Under the pieces are notes generated by a model. The model had not been told where the DNA came from. It saw nothing but the letters and a program-made list of their open reading frames with translations, and did not search any database. Shown here piece after piece: positions 386 to 12,279 of a stretch of DNA of 21,928 bases. Origin of the DNA: a virus. Taxonomy: Duplodnaviria; Heunggongvirae; Uroviricota; Caudoviricetes. The position numbers were made by a program, and so were the translations under genes. Location: the IMG/VR virus record IMGVR_UViG_2651869749_000015; one strand, 5' to 3'. Each line of letters begins with the position of its first letter. Positions within the stretch are counted from its first letter, which is position 1.

Positions 386-1609
386 ATGGCGCTGTCTGAT
401 GCGTGGTTGCGTTCAGTTGTTGGAAAGGAACGTGATAAGGTTTTGGTTAAATCCGATCGTGATGGTCTGTCTGTCAGAGTATCACCGAAAGGTCGCGTAG
501 TGTTCCAATATCGTTATCAATGGGCAGGGAAAGGTGAGCGTCTTGATATCGGAACTTACCCGGCAACTGGATTAAAAGAGGCCAGAGAAGAAGTTATCCG
601 TCTCCGTGGTGAACTCGAGTCAAACCGCAATCCACGATTGGTCAAGCAGGCAGAAAAACGCAAAGCTACTGAAGCCATGACTGTAGAGTCTGTGATCCGT
701 GCTTGGTATGAAGCATATTGTGTAAAAAATAAAAAAGGTGCTGAGCAGATACTCCGCTCATTTGAACTGCACCTGTTCTCTAAAATCGGGAGTATCCCTC
801 ACGATGCAGCTACATTGCATGATTGGTTAGAGGTCTTGGAGCCTCTTAGCACTAAGACTCCAGCAATAGCTGACCGATTGCTAATTAACGCAAAGCAGGC
901 CCATGTCTGGGCGTATAAGAGAAAGCTCATTGAAACTCGCCCGCTGTCGGATATCACAGGTAAAGATATGGATATCCGTAAAGGTCAGAAGAAACGGTTT
1001 CTGACACATGATGAAATTAAAATCCTTTATGCTGCGATCGATGGTTCTCGAATGGTTCCTAAATACCGGGCCTTCATTAAACTATTGTTGCATTTTGGCT
1101 GCCGTAGTTCAGAGCTAATTACCGCTAGGGTGGACGATTTTGATTTCATTAATAAGGTATGGACTGTACCGCCAGAACGACATAAGACAGGGGAGATAAC
1201 AGGCGAACCACTAAAGCGGCCCATTATTGGGCCGGTTGAAGAGCTTATAAAATACGTTATCTCTATGAACAACGGTTCCGATATGCTTTTTACTAAGGAA
1301 GGAAGCAGGGAGCCAGTTGGTCGGACATCATTGCAGTCGCTGCCTTACAATTTAATGCAGTTCGCATGGCGACGTTTGGGGTATCAATTCCCTCATTGGT
1401 CTCTTCATGATTTGAGGCGAACAGCACGAACAAACTTTTCTGATCTTACTGCGCCTCATATTGCAGAAATTATGCTTGGTCATAAGTTGCCAGGGGTATG
1501 GCAGGTTTATGACAAGAGCGATTATCTAGAAGAACAGCGTAAAGCCTACCAGGTATGGTGGGAGAGGGTTGAATTGATAGTTGCTTGTATTAGCTCAGAC
1601 CCCAACTGA
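386..1609 (+). CDS. int: Tyrosine site-specific integrase (P4-like family with N-terminal arm-binding domain)
   Basis: 407 aa ORF. Catalytic signature residues are visible: R in FGCRSSEL, H-x-x-R in HDLRRTART, H in LGHKLPG and Y in VYDKSDY. It sits directly beside the prfC junction. SD-like AGGTGA lies 3 nt upstream of the ATG. Confidence 0.92.
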   Translation: MALSDAWLRSVVGKERDKVLVKSDRDGLSVRVSPKGRVVFQYRYQWAGKGERLDIGTYPATGLKEAREEVIRLRGELESNRNPRLVKQAEKRKATEAMTVESVIRAWYEAYCVKNKKGAEQILRSFELHLFSKIGSIPHDAATLHDWLEVLEPLSTKTPAIADRLLINAKQAHVWAYKRKLIETRPLSDITGKDMDIRKGQKKRFLTHDEIKILYAAIDGSRMVPKYRAFIKLLLHFGCRSSELITARVDDFDFINKVWTVPPERHKTGEITGEPLKRPIIGPVEELIKYVISMNNGSDMLFTKEGSREPVGRTSLQSLPYNLMQFAWRRLGYQFPHWSLHDLRRTARTNFSDLTAPHIAEIMLGHKLPGVWQVYDKSDYLEEQRKAYQVWWERVELIVACISSDPN

Positions 1610-1880
1610 CCGTTTGCATAGCTAGAACGAAATAAAATCTGACTGTCCGTTTTGAGCGACAACTAGACCTCAAAATATCTGTTGGATAATGGGGGTAAAA
1701 TACACTTTAAAAAAATATGCTTAATAAGTAACTTATTTTGTTTAAATTTATGAAACACTCTCTAAATTATCTCTTATAATTTAACATTCTTTCTTGATTA
1801 TATGTGTAAAAATATAGTTAAAAATGTTAACTGAGATGCGTGTGTTATTAATGTGTTGATTTCTAATGTTGTTTTTGTTT

Positions 1881-1908
1881 GCGCCTTGAATGCAAGGCGC
1901 TATTTATC
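1881..1908. terminator. GC-rich hairpin between the convergent 3' ends of int and the cargo operon (possible terminator)
   Basis: GCGCCTT-gaatgc-AAGGCGC (7 bp stem, 6 nt loop) at 1881-1900, followed by TATTTAT on the + strand. The T-run is weak on the minus strand, so strand assignment is uncertain. Confidence 0.3.
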
Positions 1909-2401
1909 AAGATAGTCTATTCAGATCAGTATTAGGTGTGCTTCTTTTTGATGCAAAGATGGATTTGAATCTTTTTGAGTAACTATCAAAAAACCATTTT
2001 GTATAATTACCTTCAATTTCCTCTAATATTGAATACTTCATCTCATGAAGTTCATTTTTATAATCACACTTTTTGCTTAACAAGTCTAAAGGTGTTGATC
2101 TGATAGATGACAACTGTTCATCACATAATAATTTCTTACCAATCCTTTGTGATAAATGAGACAGCTGCATTTCAATTAATGAGACACTGGAGGCTAAAAA
2201 ATTATCCAGCTCTAATTCTTTAGTATCTCTAGAAGAGAGCTTATCTAAAACATTATCAAAAAGAGATTCTATTTGCTGACAGATTTTATCCTTTTGCCTT
2301 GAAATATCATTTCGCTTGAATGCTCTATTATTGAAATAAGACGCAACAAGCCAACCAATTATAGCAATCACAATACTTGTATAATTAACCTCTTCCTGCA
2401 T
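1907..2401 (-). CDS. Small single-pass membrane protein of unknown function (third gene of the cargo operon; candidate effector)
   Basis: ORF with ATG at 2401 (GTG at 2404 one codon upstream). Hydrophobic helix YTSIVIAIIGWLVASYF near the N-terminus, followed by a polar, charged region. Its start overlaps the stop of the upstream gene by 17 nt. Low GC. Confidence 0.6.
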   Translation of the reverse strand: MQEEVNYTSIVIAIIGWLVASYFNNRAFKRNDISRQKDKICQQIESLFDNVLDKLSSRDTKELELDNFLASSVSLIEMQLSHLSQRIGKKLLCDEQLSSIRSTPLDLLSKKCDYKNELHEMKYSILEEIEGNYTKWFFDSYSKRFKSIFASKRSTPNTDLNRLS

Positions 2402-2717
2402 CACTCTCTGCCTTATTCAATCGTTCATCAATCAAGGTCTCAATACTCTTAATATCTTTATGAGTATAAGTTAGTTTTTTCTTAAGTTCGCTTAATGTGT
2501 AGCCTTCTACTCGGATCAAGCCACCAAACGCTTCATCAATAAATGAACGCCCATAACGGTTATATCCAGTCAACTCAACATGAACTAAATCATACTCTTT
2601 GAGAAAGCCTGCCAGATATTTGCGAAAGTTTTCCCCACAGCCTGCCCCATCGTCTGGATAGCGCCCGTAAGGCTTACTGTTGAAGTCTTTGATAACATTG
2701 ATGTTTTTAGTCTTCAT
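2385..2717 (-). CDS. Small STAS-like protein (DUF4325-type, anti-sigma-antagonist-like fold) - putative partner of the adjacent kinase
   Basis: 110 aa. The segment DLVHVELTGYNRYGRSFIDEAFGGLIRVEG matches the pattern I recall for DUF4325/STAS-like proteins (V-x-L-D/E-F/L-x-G-V, then SF-x-DE-x-F-G-x-L). Its ATG overlaps the stop of the upstream ATPase gene (2707-2717). Assignment is from memory, not an HMM hit. Confidence 0.6.
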   Translation of the reverse strand: MKTKNINVIKDFNSKPYGRYPDDGAGCGENFRKYLAGFLKEYDLVHVELTGYNRYGRSFIDEAFGGLIRVEGYTLSELKKKLTYTHKDIKSIETLIDERLNKAESDAGRG

Positions 2718-3816
2718 AGCTGACCTTGATGTTCCACTGAATTAAAGTACCTGGTACTTTATGAGTTAACTCATTAATTTTATCACCTTTCTTATTAGAA
2801 AGCTTGAACATACCTAAATTACTGTAAATCCAAAGGTTTCCATGTTCATTATTTAGTACTAGAGCTTTAATACTCTTACTTCCTTGACCATGTTTATCAT
2901 TGGCTGTACCGGTTACGTCTCCAATCATAGAAATTGCTATTTTTACTGCATCAGAAACAATACCAACTTTTACTTTAGAGCGCTCTTTATAACCTAAACC
3001 TATTCTCTCAAGTTCTTCGTTAACCGCAACCTTTAGATCTGGATATTTTGATTTGAGCGTACTCATAAACCATGTCTTTTGCATTACAGTTTCAGGTATA
3101 CCAACACCTTCATCATATATAGCAAGATACAGCTGGTCATGAATTACGTGACATGCAAGCCACCATCGTTTCTCATCATTATTTTTATGCGGATAGGCGT
3201 GTAAACCAACATTATTTATTGCTTCCTGAACAGCATCTGCATATGTATGTTCTGTTTCAGGTTTCATCTTGTTTTTATAAATTTCTTTCTGGATGAAATC
3301 TATAATCTCATCTCTATATTCTCCTCCTACCCCGCTAATAATGGGCAAGTTTTCAACGTTTTCGAAGACAGGTTTTAATTTTTCGCCCCGACATAAGGCG
3401 ACAAGCCCCGAGTCTCTTAAAAGCTGATTGACTTTAAAATCTGTTGAAAATAATAATCTGTACGATAAACCTTTACGAATTGAAGTTTCAACACTGGCAT
3501 AAAGTATTACTAATGCTGCCATTTTTATTGTTTTTGTATTTGTAAAATCTAAATATAATCTCTCATCAGGATTGTATTTTTTATTCCTGACGTGATTTAT
3601 CGAGTGTAGAGAGTGCGCAAAAAAATTAGGCTTATCTGGTGAATATATTGAAAACTCAGATGGAAACCGAATAAAGTTATTATCTTTTTTCTTTTGAGAT
3701 TTTTTTTGTTGACGAAACTGCGAATACTCTTTCCCTTGACGGGAAACACTTCGCTGCCATCTTTTAAAAGCCAGCCTAATTCTTACACTTTTTTCCTTAT
3801 TGGTCTTGTTTTCCAT
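2707..3816 (-). CDS. GHKL-superfamily ATPase / RsbW-SpoIIAB-like serine kinase domain protein with a basic N-terminal tail
   Basis: 369 aa. Bergerat-fold motifs in the C-terminal half: N-box QEAINNVGLHAY (residues ~197-208), G1 box IYDEGVGIP (D235-G239; confirmed as gatgaaggtgttggt on the minus strand at 3100-3114), G2-like RIGLGY, and C-terminal GTLIQWNIKV. Start ATG at 3816 is preceded by SD AGGAGA. First ~45 residues are very K/R/Q-rich. Confidence 0.75.
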   Translation of the reverse strand: MENKTNKEKSVRIRLAFKRWQRSVSRQGKEYSQFRQQKKSQKKKDNNFIRFPSEFSIYSPDKPNFFAHSLHSINHVRNKKYNPDERLYLDFTNTKTIKMAALVILYASVETSIRKGLSYRLLFSTDFKVNQLLRDSGLVALCRGEKLKPVFENVENLPIISGVGGEYRDEIIDFIQKEIYKNKMKPETEHTYADAVQEAINNVGLHAYPHKNNDEKRWWLACHVIHDQLYLAIYDEGVGIPETVMQKTWFMSTLKSKYPDLKVAVNEELERIGLGYKERSKVKVGIVSDAVKIAISMIGDVTGTANDKHGQGSKSIKALVLNNEHGNLWIYSNLGMFKLSNKKGDKINELTHKVPGTLIQWNIKVSYED

Positions 3817-3981
3817 GTGTCTCCTATCAATATGCTGTTCTTTTCATACTACGAATGATAGTACAATTAAACCAAGATTGGTATACAGACTACACGTCGT
3901 CCAGCACAAAAATTTTGTTGGTGGGTGAGATTTAAAAACTTAGTTAAATCATGTAGATACGATTGATTGAGTATAAAAATA

Positions 3982-4023
3982 CCGTTCTTAGCCATGCTCA
4001 AGAACGGCTTGGTTTTGTTGTTG
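3982..4023. terminator. Hairpin with flanking T/A runs; likely bidirectional intrinsic terminator insulating the cargo operon from the early-left operon
   Basis: CCGTTCTT-agccatgctc-AAGAACGG (8 bp stem) at 3982-4007, followed by CTTGGTTTTGTTGTTG on + and preceded by ATAAAAATA, which gives a T-run on the minus strand. Confidence 0.4.
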
Positions 4024-4563
4024 ATAAAAATACTAAAGCTTTAACGAGTCTTAAATCAGTATTGAAATAAAAAACTCAAATTAATTAATAAGAGGTTTGT
4101 TATTGAAAAAACATAACCCAAGAAAATTCATTAATTTTGAGTTTCAATTAACACAAAACACAACTTAATAATGCTCATGAATATATTAAATCATTAATGC
4201 AGATAGTATTATTACCGAATGAGAACACAGCAATTTAGCTTATTCTGCCCTATTTATACCACTGCTCCTGACCTTGTGTGGTGGCAGGAGCATCAGCCCA
4301 GTCACGATTCTTGGGTTGCTGACTTGGGGCACGATCATTACTTGACACATTCTACTTTTCTTCCTTGAGAACCTTAATATTTCCATATGTCGCTACTTTA
4401 CACTCCTGCTTTCAGGCCTACACTTCGCTTACCATTAACATATTGTATTTCTTGGTATCAGCCGATGACTTTACCCTTTTGGGGCTCGGGACATTTTCTC
4501 TTGTATCTTTCAGGAAAATATTAAATAACCATTTATCCATATAGTGATGTCAACTAATAGCTA

Positions 4564-4758
4564 CTACTCAATAATTCCAGCAAATCTGTATATCTTGTGT
4601 GATGCCCATTTATTTGGGCAGGATTTAATATCCGGATCTGGAAACTCAGGCCTGTATTTCTGGCCAGTTCTCCTGTTTACGCTGTTCCAGCGAAGAACGG
4701 TCGATACTGAAACGCCACAGAAGTCGGCGACTTGTTTAGTTGTCATTAAGTTGTTCAT
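4564..4758 (-). CDS. Excisionase-like / AlpA-family small HTH DNA-binding protein
   Basis: 64 aa, MNNLMTTKQVADFCGVSVSTVLRWNSVNRRTGQ... with a helix-turn-helix. It is the last gene of the leftward operon, on the integrase side of the prophage. Confidence 0.55.
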   Translation of the reverse strand: MNNLMTTKQVADFCGVSVSTVLRWNSVNRRTGQKYRPEFPDPDIKSCPNKWASHKIYRFAGIIE

Positions 4759-5930
4759 TACTTCACCTCCTGCGGCGGTTCCGGTAGCGGCATCCAGTGG
4801 GTTACTTTCGATGCCGGTTCTTCCCCATTGTCAGTAACTGCCCACCATTTGTTTCTCGACCAATCGTAATACCCTTCGAAGGTATCGCACTCAGTCCAGC
4901 CGTAAGACTTACCCCAACACCAAACATACTGTTTATCGTTCGGCATTCGCTCACTACAGCTTATCCAACCATCCGGAGTTACCGGAGAGTTGCCATTCAC
5001 AAGGTCAGCTCGAACATATAGCGTGTCATCATGGTGCTGATTGTGGCTGCACCACGTTAATTCGCTTAACTCGCCATCTTCTGGCCATACTCCAGCTGTT
5101 TGCAGCCAGATATGGGCTGGCGCATCTTGGCAAGGTGTATTAACTGGCAACTTGTAAGTTTGGCTTACAGGTTGGCTACCCTGAAGCATGGCCGCGCGGC
5201 AGGCATTCCACCCCTTCACATAACCGAACGCCATCAACTGATCATTCATGGCGGGCAGCATTGTGTGGGTCGTACTGATTTCCTCCGGCACTACTGGCGA
5301 TGGCTGTTTGGCTTCTAAATCAGCAATTCTGTCAACTACGGCATCGACAGCATCTGAAAAACTGAAACAGTTACTCCACTCCGGCCAGTTCCCGGTTGCT
5401 GCAAAGTACATATCTGCTAAAGCAGATTCAGCATGGTCACGCTCGTTAATGAGTTGCTCTTCGCTTTTCTCCAGTTCAGCAATACGCTTCTCTGCGGCTT
5501 CTGCCCTGCATTGTTCCCGTTGGAACATTTTGTGGGTGCGGTCGAGCGCCTCAAGTCTGGCTGCTGATGTTTTCTCTTCTGCTTCAAGCTCAACGCGCAG
5601 CTTCCCAACCGTAAGCGCAATATCCTCGTTCTCCTGGTCGCGGGATTTGATGTATTGCTGGTTTCTTTCCCGTTCATCCAGTAGTGCCAGCGCAACATTT
5701 GGATTAAAAGCAGCAATAAATTCAGCGTTTGCATAAGCCTGAACATCTGTTTCAATCAGGCAGTTAACATGACATTCCGCAATCACGCCACCGGGTTCTC
5801 CTTTCCATTTTTGACAAACAAAAACTCCTGTTAAATTGCCGTGTTGGTTAACAGATGTATGCCCTACGATGTAGCTTCCTTTAGTTGCTTTCTCTGCCTT
5901 TTCACGCAGTGCCTGATAGTCAATTGTCAT
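4758..5930 (-). CDS. Ea22-like early protein with C-terminal DUF551-like domain
   Basis: Coiled-coil-like acidic middle region and a C-terminal W/C-rich segment ending VTHWMPLPEPP. Probable start is the ATG at 5930, which overlaps the upstream stop as ATGA and has AAGG upstream; the long ORF starts at 5939. Confidence 0.55.
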   Translation of the reverse strand: MTIDYQALREKAEKATKGSYIVGHTSVNQHGNLTGVFVCQKWKGEPGGVIAECHVNCLIETDVQAYANAEFIAAFNPNVALALLDERERNQQYIKSRDQENEDIALTVGKLRVELEAEEKTSAARLEALDRTHKMFQREQCRAEAAEKRIAELEKSEEQLINERDHAESALADMYFAATGNWPEWSNCFSFSDAVDAVVDRIADLEAKQPSPVVPEEISTTHTMLPAMNDQLMAFGYVKGWNACRAAMLQGSQPVSQTYKLPVNTPCQDAPAHIWLQTAGVWPEDGELSELTWCSHNQHHDDTLYVRADLVNGNSPVTPDGWISCSERMPNDKQYVWCWGKSYGWTECDTFEGYYDWSRNKWWAVTDNGEEPASKVTHWMPLPEPPQEVK

Positions 5931-6571
5931 TCTCGCCATCCTTCACAGTTGTAATCACTACAGCCTTCAAAATCATATGGGTTGTACTGCCAGGTGATTT
6001 TTCCGCAATGCGGACAATTCCAACGCACCTTCCCGCTTCGCGACTTCTTTCTTCTGTTCTGCTTTTTCAACCAGTCAGGCATGACCAAACCTGCGCCCTG
6101 AACCATTGTTCTGCGGTTAAAGTTATTGATATTGAACGTCCGGCGCTTTGCTGAATCAGCAATGGAAAATGGCAACCAAACTATTCCTGGTTCGTTTTTG
6201 TTGGCGACGCTAAAGATGGTCGCTTTACTGAAGTCATCTGTTGGCAATCCACCGTGTTGAAGCCAGTAAACATCGTTGCCGTTCCAGCTACTTTTTTTGT
6301 AGGCCACATACGCAGTGCAATCTGGCTCAATCAGGTTTTCTGTAGGGATGTACTGGTAATCAACGTGCCACACAGCCATTGCATCCACGCTATCAGCGCA
6401 AACAGGCTGATCGATATCTCGACCACAATTCCAGGCTTTTTGGGCTTCTTCCAGCGTGTAAACATGAGCGCGATCGATATTAGAACTGTAACCATTGCCG
6501 TTATGGCAATGGAATGAAGCGTTATTACCCACAGTTTCACGCAAGCACATCATGTAAAAGCGGTTATTCAC
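5927..6571 (-). CDS. Phage early protein with C-terminal zinc-ribbon (CPHCG...C..C); YfdT-like position
   Basis: ORF 5927-6604. Probable true start is GTG at 6571, preceded by AGGAGG with a 6 nt spacer and overlapping the upstream TGA as GTGA. C-terminal CxxC...CxxC motif. Confidence 0.5.
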   Translation of the reverse strand: MNNRFYMMCLRETVGNNASFHCHNGNGYSSNIDRAHVYTLEEAQKAWNCGRDIDQPVCADSVDAMAVWHVDYQYIPTENLIEPDCTAYVAYKKSSWNGNDVYWLQHGGLPTDDFSKATIFSVANKNEPGIVWLPFSIADSAKRRTFNINNFNRRTMVQGAGLVMPDWLKKQNRRKKSRSGKVRWNCPHCGKITWQYNPYDFEGCSDYNCEGWRE

Positions 6572-7572: not shown

Positions 7573-8397
7573 TCAGGCGGTGAAAGTACCAATAAAGGTT
7601 TCTACTTTGCTGTCTTTGAATTTCTCAACAAGCAGATCACGAAATTCGTTAGCCATTTCTTCCTGCACTGCTTCCAGCTGAATAATGCGCAGAACCAGTA
7701 CAGGACGATCGCCAGTGATAATGCTGAGGCGTAATTTAAATGGACGTTCTTTCAGACCTTCAAACGGAACGCATTTAAATTCAAATGCCACTGGCATAAT
7801 ATCTTTGGTCTTCGCTTCGACAGACTCCATCAGGGAGCGTTTGCCGCTGAAGTCATTATCTTCAAAATCAGCGGTCTGGTTTGCTTCAATCGTGATTTTA
7901 CGGACAGCCGCAGCCGCTTTTGTTGCCTGAATAGCGTCACCATTAGCATCAAAGCCCACAAGGTAGTCGGCCCAGTCTTCAATCCATTCTGCCAGTGACT
8001 TCTGGGAGTTACGCTCGCCATTAACAGACAACAGAGCAGAAAACGGTGCTGTCTTTTTTAGCTTGAGAGTGGCGGTGTTATCTGCGTGACCTGGTTCATC
8101 AATAGTACCCAGGTTAAGCACACTGACGGCACGCATATTATCGGCATCGATAAAGCAGCGGGTGCCTTCATCTGCAAGATCTTTAGAATAACGGGTAAAG
8201 TCATCGATGCTGGCAGTGGAAAGCGCACCACGGAAACGGAAGCGATTTAAATTAAATTTTTCCAGATCATGAATGCGGAAATTCTCAGGCAATGCCACAG
8301 CATCGGCACCAATCTTACTGATAATTTCATTAACACCCTGAGCAGAAATAAGGGCATGGATTTGATTAATTGCGGTTGCGTCTAAGTTCTGAGACAT
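7573..8397 (-). CDS. yfdQ: DUF2303-family phage protein (YfdQ-like)
   Basis: 274 aa [24 protein letters not shown]..., which I recognise as the YfdQ-type protein of KplE1/CPS-53-like prophages (from memory). It sits in the conserved position between the YfdP-like and YfdR-like genes. Confidence 0.7.
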
Positions 8398-10578: not shown

Positions 10579-11122
10579 GCATCACTGGAAAGTGGAAAAA
10601 CAGCCTGAGTGGTACGTGAAAGCTGTCAGAAAAACTATCGCGGTGTTGCCGGGGGGTTACGCTGAAGCTGCTGAGTGGCTGGATGTAACAGAGAACGCTT
10701 TATTCAACCGCCTTCGTGCCGATGGCGATCAGTTTTTTCCGTTGGGATGGGCAATGGTTTTACAGCGTGCGGCTGGTACTCACCACATTGCGGATGCTGT
10801 CGCACAGTCTGCTGGTGGGGTGTTTGTATCACTTCCAGAAATTGAGGAAGTAGAGAACGCCGATATAAACCAGCGCCTGCTGGAAGTCATCGAACAGATC
10901 GGGAGTTACTCAAAGCAGATTCGTTCGGCAATCGAAGATGGGGTAGTGGAGCCACACGAGCAGACAGCAATTAATGATGAGTTGTATCTGTCAATTTCGA
11001 AGCTCCAGGAGCATGCAGCACTGGTCTACAAAATCTTCTGCGCTCCAGAAAAGAGTAACGCCCGCGAGTGTGCAGCTCCGGGCGTCGTGGCGTTTTGTGT
11101 CTGTGGAGAAACTAACGCATGA
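10571..11122 (+). CDS. CII-like regulatory protein (phage 186 CII / CP76-like family)
   Basis: 183 aa. GTG start with AGGAGG upstream, overlapping the cro stop. The pattern ...ALFNRLRADGDQFFPLGWAMVLQRAAG... resembles the 186-CII/CP76-type regulators as I recall them. Confidence 0.5.
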   Translation: MGKHHWKVEKQPEWYVKAVRKTIAVLPGGYAEAAEWLDVTENALFNRLRADGDQFFPLGWAMVLQRAAGTHHIADAVAQSAGGVFVSLPEIEEVENADINQRLLEVIEQIGSYSKQIRSAIEDGVVEPHEQTAINDELYLSISKLQEHAALVYKIFCAPEKSNARECAAPGVVAFCVCGETNA

Positions 11123-12279
11123 ACAGTTTAACGGCAAATAACCGTTTGTCGCAACAGCTGGTGGTCAGTGTCGCTGCACACCTGTTGTTACGGCATGAAT
11201 GCAGATTACCAAATCACCTGGCTGTAAGTAACCACAGAGAACTTTACCTGACTGTGGGGGGCGAGTTGTGCAGGAACTTAACCGCTGGTTTCGTGACGGA
11301 AGAGGACTTTATGTTCATGTTATTCGTTGGGAGCCAGAAACACAGCGCGTTATCTATCTTCGCAAAGACTACCCGCATGAGTGCTTTAGTCCTTTGTGGA
11401 AATTCAGGCGTGATTTTGTTGAGTGTGAAGGACCACCAGCATATTGATTCTGCAATTCCGGGACGTTACACTGTTCAGGCACCTTATAAAGCGGGTGCCG
11501 GGATTGGCGTCCTGAAATTGTCAACGGCGATGTATGACGCGCCAGCGTCTTTTTTATCGTCCGCATTTGCTCACATCCAGATTATGGTGGGCTGGGCGGG
11601 GGCACCGAAAGGTGCGCCGGTCTCCGTTGACGCCGGTTACGCCAACCCCGTCCAGTTCACCACCAGTGAAATTGGCGTTTCCGGTGGTGGAAGTTTTTCA
11701 CTGTCAACGGAGGCTGCCATCATGGCTACGATCCAAGCCCTCACTCAACCTGAAATCACCATTGACAACGGCCAGGCCGTTACCACTTCTTTGGCTGTTG
11801 CCAACTTCTTCTCCAAGCGTCACGACGATGTGCTGAAAAAGATCCGCACTCTGGATTGTTCCCCTGAGTTTTGTGCCCGCAATTTTGCGGAGACATCGAT
11901 TTCGGTAAATCAACCGAACGGTGGTACACGCAAGCTCCCTTGCTATCAAATCACACGAGACGGTTTTGCGTTTCTTGCTATGGGTTTCACGGGTAAACGT
12001 GCTGCCCGATTCAAAGAGGCATACATCAATGCCTTTAACCAGATGGAAAAACTGCTTTCAAAGCCATCCACGCTGAGCGATGCCGCAGATAACGCCAGCG
12101 TGCTTTACTCCCACCTGTCGGTAATCCACAAGGTCTGGCTGCAGCAGCTTTATCCTATGTTGGCAAAAGCTGAATCTCCGCTGGCTGTTAGCTTATATGA
12201 TTATATTAATGATGCTTCGGCGCTGGCCTGCCTCATAAATTTGTCGCTGAACCCTTCAGAGGTAAGGGGGCGCAAATGA
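11119..12279 (+). CDS. Rha-family phage regulatory protein (Rha domain in the C-terminal half; N-terminal ~200 codons of the long ORF are doubtful)
   Basis: The pRha signature ITIDNGQAVTTSLAVANFFSKRHDDVLKKIRTL...YQITRDGFAFLAMGFTGKRAARFKEAYINAFNQMEKLL starts at an internal ATG at 11722 with GGAGG 9 nt upstream. The upstream part of the 386-codon ORF has an off-frame-like composition (see findings). Confidence 0.6.
   Translation: MNSLTANNRLSQQLVVSVAAHLLLRHECRLPNHLAVSNHRELYLTVGGELCRNLTAGFVTEEDFMFMLFVGSQKHSALSIFAKTTRMSALVLCGNSGVILLSVKDHQHIDSAIPGRYTVQAPYKAGAGIGVLKLSTAMYDAPASFLSSAFAHIQIMVGWAGAPKGAPVSVDAGYANPVQFTTSEIGVSGGGSFSLSTEAAIMATIQALTQPEITIDNGQAVTTSLAVANFFSKRHDDVLKKIRTLDCSPEFCARNFAETSISVNQPNGGTRKLPCYQITRDGFAFLAMGFTGKRAARFKEAYINAFNQMEKLLSKPSTLSDAADNASVLYSHLSVIHKVWLQQLYPMLAKAESPLAVSLYDYINDASALACLINLSLNPSEVRGRK

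Follow-up and report, generated by a model that had tools for sequence, protein, structure and literature searches.

A prophage-borne kinase–STAS–membrane protein cassette with a candidate membrane-acting effector

The small membrane protein encoded at the integrase-proximal end of a lambdoid prophage is a candidate toxin of a three-gene cassette. We hypothesize that it is the membrane-acting effector of a phospho-switch toxin–antitoxin or abortive-infection system carried as prophage cargo, a reading to which we assign a probability of roughly 55%. The cassette was analysed in a 21,928-nucleotide stretch of viral DNA (IMG/VR record IMGVR_UViG_2651869749_000015), hereafter called the window, and its genes encode a VapK-like kinase, a VapS-like DUF4325/STAS-like protein, and the membrane protein (Table 1). 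A first-pass annotation of the window had proposed the membrane protein as the candidate effector of the module. This hypothesis gains strong circumstantial support from the homology of the first two genes to vapK and vapS and from the membrane protein always being found in the third slot. The effector role is suggested by this gene order, since the third gene of the homologous VapKSC system encodes the toxin. By analogy, the cassette would be a so far undescribed, membrane-acting cousin of VapKSC with a presumed killing activity. The concept of a kinase–STAS switch that releases a toxin has already been published; a membrane-protein output would be new.

Table 1 Features of the cassette and its surroundings in the window
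Feature	Position	Strand	Basis
Prophage tyrosine integrase gene, convergent with the cassette	386..1609	+	ORF, RefSeq annotation
GC-rich hairpin, 7 nt past the stop codon of the membrane-protein gene	1881..1900	.	Consensus scan, sequence
Gene of the 164-aa membrane-anchored four-helix-bundle protein (predicted)	1907..2401, stop codon included	-	ORF, translation, family, AF2
Basic juxtamembrane motif N-N-R-x-F-K-R-x-(D/E)-I-S-R-x-K-D-K, codons 25–39	2285..2329	-	Alignment A2
Core transmembrane helix (predicted), codons 8–24, nearly invariant G16-W17	2330..2380	-	Hydropathy, conservation
Gene of the 110-aa DUF4325/STAS-like protein, VapS-like, candidate antitoxin	2385..2717	-	PF14213 E=1e-6
Gene of the 369-aa kinase, VapK-like, candidate sensor	2707..3816	-	Bergerat motifs, AF2 + Foldseek, hhalign
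Terminator-like hairpin upstream of the kinase gene	3981..4008	-	Consensus scan
AlpA/Xis-like ORF	4564–4758	-	

The listing of open reading frames of the window contains a minus-strand frame of 165 aa at 1907..2404 that starts with GTG. The start used in RefSeq WP_042098584.1 and in all homologues is the ATG at 2401, one codon after the GTG, which yields 164 aa. The coordinates 1907-2401 given in the first-pass annotation are correct; its length of 165 aa must have counted in the stop codon or the preceding GTG. The gene is 495 nt long and its DNA has a GC content of 30–31%. The DUF4325 frame ends at 2385, so that the two genes share positions 2385–2401, the 17-nt overlap that had been noticed before. 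A spurious open reading frame was considered and rejected, since the position and sequence of the gene are conserved in about 70 loci and the protein is modelled with a pLDDT of 93, which argues against an origin by chance.

The membrane protein has one hydrophobic stretch in the window, YTSIVIAIIGWLVASYF, which spans residues 7–23. Its mean Kyte-Doolittle hydropathy is 2.16 over 15 residues and a borderline 1.64 over 19 residues, and the corresponding segment of the orthologues scores 2.1–2.3. Residues G16 and W17 are kept in at least 90% of the 66 aligned family sequences (alignment A2). The consensus of the juxtamembrane region in the same alignment reads N-x-R-x-x-x-R-x-E-I-S-R-x-K-D, with R30 and D38 nearly invariant, and E130 is conserved near the end of the protein. 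An AF2 model computed on A2 (pLDDT 93.1, pTM 0.80) contains helices at residues 7–56, 62–87, 94–107 and 114–153. The protein is therefore predicted to consist of an N-terminal transmembrane helix that runs on into a four-helix bundle. Hydropathy and the AF2 model thus agree on the N-terminal membrane helix expected earlier, and the charged remainder, previously described as probably helical, is modelled as helices through residue 153.

Averaged over the family, the net charge is -0.25 ahead of the membrane helix and +3.0 just behind it. By the established positive-inside rule, this charge bias places the bundle in the cytoplasm. The basic juxtamembrane motif appears to mark the cytoplasmic face of the membrane. 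The membrane anchor varies among the 86 full-length representatives of the family: an additional hydrophobic helix lies C-terminally in 59 and N-terminally in 13, and the core helix stands alone in 11, as in the window protein. The description of the protein as single-pass fits the window protein, but most of its family (72 of 86) has a second membrane helix. The cytoplasmic bundle is predicted to be common to all three layouts.

A word-indexed search retrieved three close relatives only, from Dickeya, Yersinia and E. coli. An exhaustive search with a profile raised the number to 93 cluster representatives at E<=1e-3, 37 of them at E<=1e-10. Comparison of the window protein and the 66 family members with Pfam and NCBIfam gave noise only, and the best that PADLOC-DB v2.0.0 offered for the membrane protein was LeoBC at E=0.014. 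No match to the membrane protein was found in the PDB with its sequence profile, in BFVD, or by tblastn in sequenced phage genomes and plasmids. A PIN domain is absent from the window protein and from the 66 family members. The fold assignment goes no further than a four-helix bundle.

The kinase is built of a basic N-terminal helix, a STAS-like domain and a GHKL ATPase/kinase domain, which the AF2 model (pLDDT 80) places at residues 2–26, ~45–142 (a β-α fold) and ~160–364, respectively. The Bergerat motifs E198, N202, D235-x-G-x-G239 and G310-Q-G312, which include the catalytic Asn and the G-boxes, are invariant in the kinase family, which is the larger one, with at least 240 matches in a profile search. 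Foldseek aligned the GHKL domain with SpoIIAB at target-normalised TM-scores of 0.62–0.69, and also with CheA-P4 and GyrB; NCBIfam models of RsbW and SpoIIAB gave sub-threshold matches (E=2e-6 to 5e-5). The kinase gene overlaps the DUF4325 gene by 11 nt. In the STAS-like protein, Ser58 is invariant in 33 sequences and lies within the motif G-x-S-F-x-D-E-A-F-G-G. Neither the kinase nor the STAS-like protein matched PADLOC-DB v2.0.0. In strain ETEC1730 (locus L001, 7108-8160), the annotated kinase gene has only 1053 nt, 57 nt fewer, and the kinase profile matches weakly once more just upstream, at 7998–8216, which suggests a frameshift or an alternative start.

The vapKSC operon encodes the STAS and GHKL kinase VapK, the small STAS protein VapS, which ends in a C-terminal helix, and the PIN toxin VapC (Chambers et al., EMBO J 2026; PMC13373217). 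VapS binds and inhibits VapC, with Ser48 of VapS, the residue of the phospho-switch, in the interface; the substitution S48E abolishes both the binding and the neutralisation of VapC; single-stranded DNA is the proposed activator of VapK and CapK, bound between their STAS and GHKL domains with the aromatic residue F54 of VapK or W68 of CapK; and protection against phage Bas42 by the operon amounts to about 2 logs (PMC13373217). An earlier survey of PIN domains had described one VapC clade whose genes are linked to those of DUF4325 proteins (PMC5499597). Chambers et al. do not mention a membrane variant of VapKSC (PMC13373217), and we found no description of a membrane-protein variant in the literature on DUF4325 and STAS proteins in phage defence.

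The first two proteins of the cassette align with their VapKSC counterparts at the level of profiles. The kinase profile (A3) matches an alignment of 30 VapK-like sequences (A7) over 265 columns that cover both the STAS and GHKL domains (hhalign probability 97.8%, E=1e-12). Against a single protein of this VapK-like family, from a VapKSC-like operon on a Deinococcus plasmid that encodes a kinase, a STAS-like protein and a PIN protein, the STAS part alone was aligned (hhalign E=0.034). The STAS-like protein matches the VapS-like protein of the same operon with an hhalign E-value of 1.5e-4. Downstream of a second member of the VapK-like family lie genes for DUF4325 and PIN-like proteins, and the neighbourhood is one of defence genes. 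The top match of the STAS-like profile in the PDB is Escherichia VapS (9z7o), a weak one (E=0.32) over 78 residues, in which Ser58 aligns to chain residue 66, that is, to Ser48 of VapS after an 18-residue tag. Searches with the single STAS-like sequence in the PDB and with the VapS fragment in viral contigs gave no match. The profile matches together with the alignment of Ser58 and Ser48 indicate that the first two genes of the cassette are homologues of vapK and vapS. The putative kinase/antagonist pair of the first-pass annotation is better termed kinase and candidate antitoxin.

A genome scan with the kinase profile yielded 32 loci from Enterobacterales, Pseudomonadales, Alteromonadales, Vibrionales, Pasteurellales and a few other groups. 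At all of these loci with downstream DNA present, the kinase gene is followed by a DUF4325 gene and a gene of the membrane-protein family; three divergent third genes were assigned by eye via the G-W/N-x-R motif. Overlapping or abutting genes were measured at 35 loci, the window among them, with a single exception in Avibacterium gallinarum. There, the third gene is split by a frameshift (L027, 7339-7883) and the kinase and STAS-like genes look intact; a toxic third gene could be decaying there, or the split could stem from a sequencing error. The same three-gene architecture is present at 33 of 47 contig loci from IMG/VR. Checked from the side of the protein, close homologues and three distant representatives of the membrane protein are all encoded behind DUF4325, and behind the kinase where the contig allows. 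The proposed genetic coupling of the membrane protein to the kinase and STAS-like pair is borne out by the 11- and 17-nt overlaps and by a gene order conserved in about 70 loci.

A further 12 of the 47 IMG/VR loci are distant and retain the DUF4325 gene and a third protein of 140–215 aa that has a hydrophobic helix at its N-terminal end and is otherwise helical. The kinases of loci L079-L091 have 23–30% identity, and their third proteins carry a helical region with the motif E-x-YW; L080, L085 and L087 have an extra N-terminal domain of ~70 aa. Comparison of the membrane-protein family with the third proteins of the distant relatives (A8) gave an hhalign E-value of 0.086, at which homology is not demonstrable; these third proteins resemble the family in architecture only.

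The membrane protein, with a median pairwise identity of 27% across 31 matched loci, is the fastest-evolving of the three; the medians of the kinase and the STAS-like protein are 37% and 54%, respectively. The divergence of the kinase correlates with that of the membrane protein (r=0.56), as expected if the three cassette genes travel together.

In the mechanism that we propose, the STAS-like protein at rest would keep the membrane protein inactive by binding to its cytoplasmic four-helix bundle. A signal of infection or stress would switch on the STAS and GHKL kinase, which would phosphorylate Ser58 of the STAS-like protein and make it let go of the bundle. The freed membrane protein would then oligomerise, probably via its bundle and transmembrane helices, and permeabilise or depolarise the inner membrane, so that growth and phage production stop. 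The switch would be one-way and abortive, since the cassette encodes no phosphatase. We infer the binding, phosphorylation, toxicity, defence and trigger steps by analogy.

The membrane protein may instead provide the input of the cassette or its anchor. It would then sense a membrane event, or tether the STAS-like protein or the kinase, and the output would lie elsewhere; we regard this as unlikely. The events sensed would be DNA injection, holin action or depolarisation. A damaging or regulatory output would come from the kinase or from a target encoded elsewhere, much like in membrane-linked partner-switching cascades; this arrangement is just as doubtful. The nearest structural neighbours of the membrane protein are indeed the four-helix-bundle sensor domains of histidine kinases and chemoreceptors, the protein has no recognisable toxic domain, and its fast evolution is as expected of a protein facing phage diversity. 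However, sensor domains of this kind sit in the periplasm, whereas the charge bias points to a cytoplasmic bundle. VapKSC senses through its kinase and has its toxin encoded by the third gene, and no further output gene is conserved near the cassette among 136 flanking ORFs. GHKL kinases of the SpoIIAB type are highly substrate-specific, which makes the kinase an unlikely toxin. A narrower form, in which the protein, embedded in the membrane, detects envelope stress or the entry of phages and controls the STAS/kinase switch from there, with the output in the kinase or an unlinked target, is less probable still. If true, it would represent a new kind of membrane-surveillance partner-switching immunity, and a sensor role in general would reveal a novel membrane-based means of detecting infection in bacteria.

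The prophage that carries the candidate effector cassette is inserted in the 5' end of prfC, and the cassette lies in an AT-rich block (1600–4400, 30–37% GC) flanked by DNA of 44–50% GC. It is present in 6 of 5426 complete E. coli genomes. The hairpin that follows the membrane-protein gene is likely the end of the operon; its T-tail is on the plus strand only, and the minus-strand transcript would therefore end without a canonical tail. The terminator-like hairpin upstream of the kinase gene would shield the cassette from early-left transcription of the prophage, in which case the promoter of the cassette would sit in 3817–3980. A consensus scan upstream of the kinase gene detected no promoter-like site that exceeds chance expectation. 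Between the kinase start and the AlpA/Xis-like ORF lie about 750 nt of AT-rich DNA (3817-4563), in which no ORF is convincing.

Several features of the window lie outside the cassette. At positions 91-165, prfC is kept for its first 22 codons, after which the sequence diverges and runs into a stop codon; RefSeq lists the remnant as a partial pseudogene. A 393-aa ORF on the minus strand (4758-5939) is intact in the window; in near-identical RefSeq prophages, the annotation of this region shows DUF551 pseudogene fragments only. Rfam models of isrK (11479–11555, plus strand, 62 bits) and C4 antisense RNA (11580–11667, plus strand, 81 bits) score above their gathering thresholds. The two form an antisense immunity element of the P1/P7 type inside a 386-aa ORF (11119–12279).

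Relatives of the cassette occupy diverse sites. In Dickeya, it lies in the tra region of an ICE, in P. aeruginosa at the mutS flank, and in one prophage relative beside the repressor. In Yersinia, Serratia and their relatives, it is carried by P4-like satellites adjoining int, and the int-adjacent site of P4 is a documented defence hotspot (PMC9122126). One locus (L095, 1938-8570) has the cassette between the Q antiterminator and HNH/terminase genes, the position of a late-operon moron, which suggests that some copies are expressed in lytic growth. The commonest families among the 136 flanking ORFs are phage integrases (10), S24 peptidases (5) and SmpB (4). Other flanking ORFs match PtuA, PDC-S20/S28, QatA/PifA-like ATPases, KAP NTPases and methyltransferases.

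The int-proximal or moron positions in prophages and satellites would also suit non-suicidal superinfection exclusion, in which the membrane protein would block phage DNA entry or an envelope step at the inner membrane and the kinase and STAS-like protein would only tune it. The protein is small and of the inner membrane, like known exclusion proteins such as HK97 gp15, T4 Imm and P22 SieA. Known exclusion proteins work alone, however, whereas the membrane protein is invariably linked to a kinase and a phospho-acceptor STAS protein at its roughly 70 loci. Nearly all of the mass of the membrane protein is cytoplasmic according to the predicted topology, and the homologous VapKSC works via the release of a toxin. 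Superinfection exclusion is thus a very unlikely function.

It is most improbable that the membrane protein is a holin- or antiholin-like lysis regulator or an induction timer of the prophage rather than a defence protein: three of the 66 family members match the PHROG 'holin' family phrog_4237 and one relative sits between the Q antiterminator and terminase genes, but the match in the window protein is weak (E=7.5e-4), near noise and confined to the hydrophobic helix and basic stretch (residues 5–39), the lysis genes of the window (EssD holin and RrrD lysozyme) are ~17 kb away, and the cassette also occurs in ICEs, satellites and chromosomal sites that lack lysis genes. The membrane protein thus has neither a significant match to a holin family nor a position in a lysis cassette.

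If the membrane protein is the phospho-switched effector, as we prefer, the VapK/VapS switch would be a general, exchangeable trigger that can be wired to a nuclease or to a membrane-damaging protein. The membrane protein would then represent a new family of membrane effectors, with at least 93 clusters in Gammaproteobacteria and beyond, and would be gated by phosphorylation of a sequestering antitoxin and not by a nucleotide signal. The cassette spans 1.9 kb and is carried by prophages, P4-like satellites and ICEs; current defence catalogues do not list it. Compact, mobile and uncatalogued, it is a ready candidate for cloning and testing against a panel of phages.

Among known systems, VapKSC is similar to the cassette in the tightly coupled order of kinase, small STAS protein and output, without a phosphatase. 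Both have a DUF4325-type STAS protein with a C-terminal helix and an invariant serine at the position of S48, and both have been found in mobile or defence surroundings. In place of a PIN protein, however, the cassette encodes as its third product a predicted membrane-anchored four-helix bundle without a catalytic domain, and it is for this reason not VapKSC as defined, though it probably operates in a similar way. Its kinase differs from VapK-like kinases by two extra elements, a basic N-terminal helix of ~54 residues (1-54) and an insertion in the GHKL domain (~245–282). The helix could serve in nucleic-acid or membrane binding.

The cassette also resembles the CapK–CapS pair, which combines a GHKL kinase that has an internal STAS domain with a STAS partner that has a conserved serine. 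CapK is an HTH-STAS-GHKL kinase that phosphorylates the conserved serine of CapS, a STAS-wHTH transcriptional repressor, and the pair regulates CBASS, Bub and further immune operons (PMC13373217). In contrast to CapS with its wHTH and CapK with its N-terminal HTH, the STAS-like protein of the cassette has no DNA-binding domain. The cassette pair is followed by the membrane protein only, and not by an immune operon.

SpoIIAB–SpoIIAA and RsbW–RsbV have in common with the cassette the GHKL serine-kinase fold and a STAS substrate with a serine at the N-terminus of a helix. The cassette kinase nevertheless scores only 27.1 bits with the RsbW model, against a cut-off of 145, and 23.2 bits with that of SpoIIAB, against a cut-off of 135, and is predicted to share only the fold with these anti-sigma kinases. 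Sigma factor and PP2C phosphatase genes are neither adjacent to the cassette in the window nor among the top 25 Pfam families of the 136 flanking ORFs. The cassette further differs from these partner-switching systems in that its output would be a membrane protein and the module is cargo of mobile elements.

The small membrane effectors of abortive infection, which include the TM effectors of CBASS and Pycsar, Cam1 and Csx23 of type III CRISPR systems, and RexB, are thought to kill through membrane damage. Terminal membrane proteins of defence operons that act as suicide effectors have a precedent in P4 hotspots, where HAD+TM and RT-nitrilase+TM systems were described (PMC9122126). The membrane protein of the cassette is similar to such effectors in having one or two membrane helices and a small, putatively regulatory cytoplasmic domain, and in being encoded last in its operon. 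It matches none of them in sequence or fold, and it differs in its control, which would be exerted by protein sequestration and phosphorylation and not by a nucleotide ligand.
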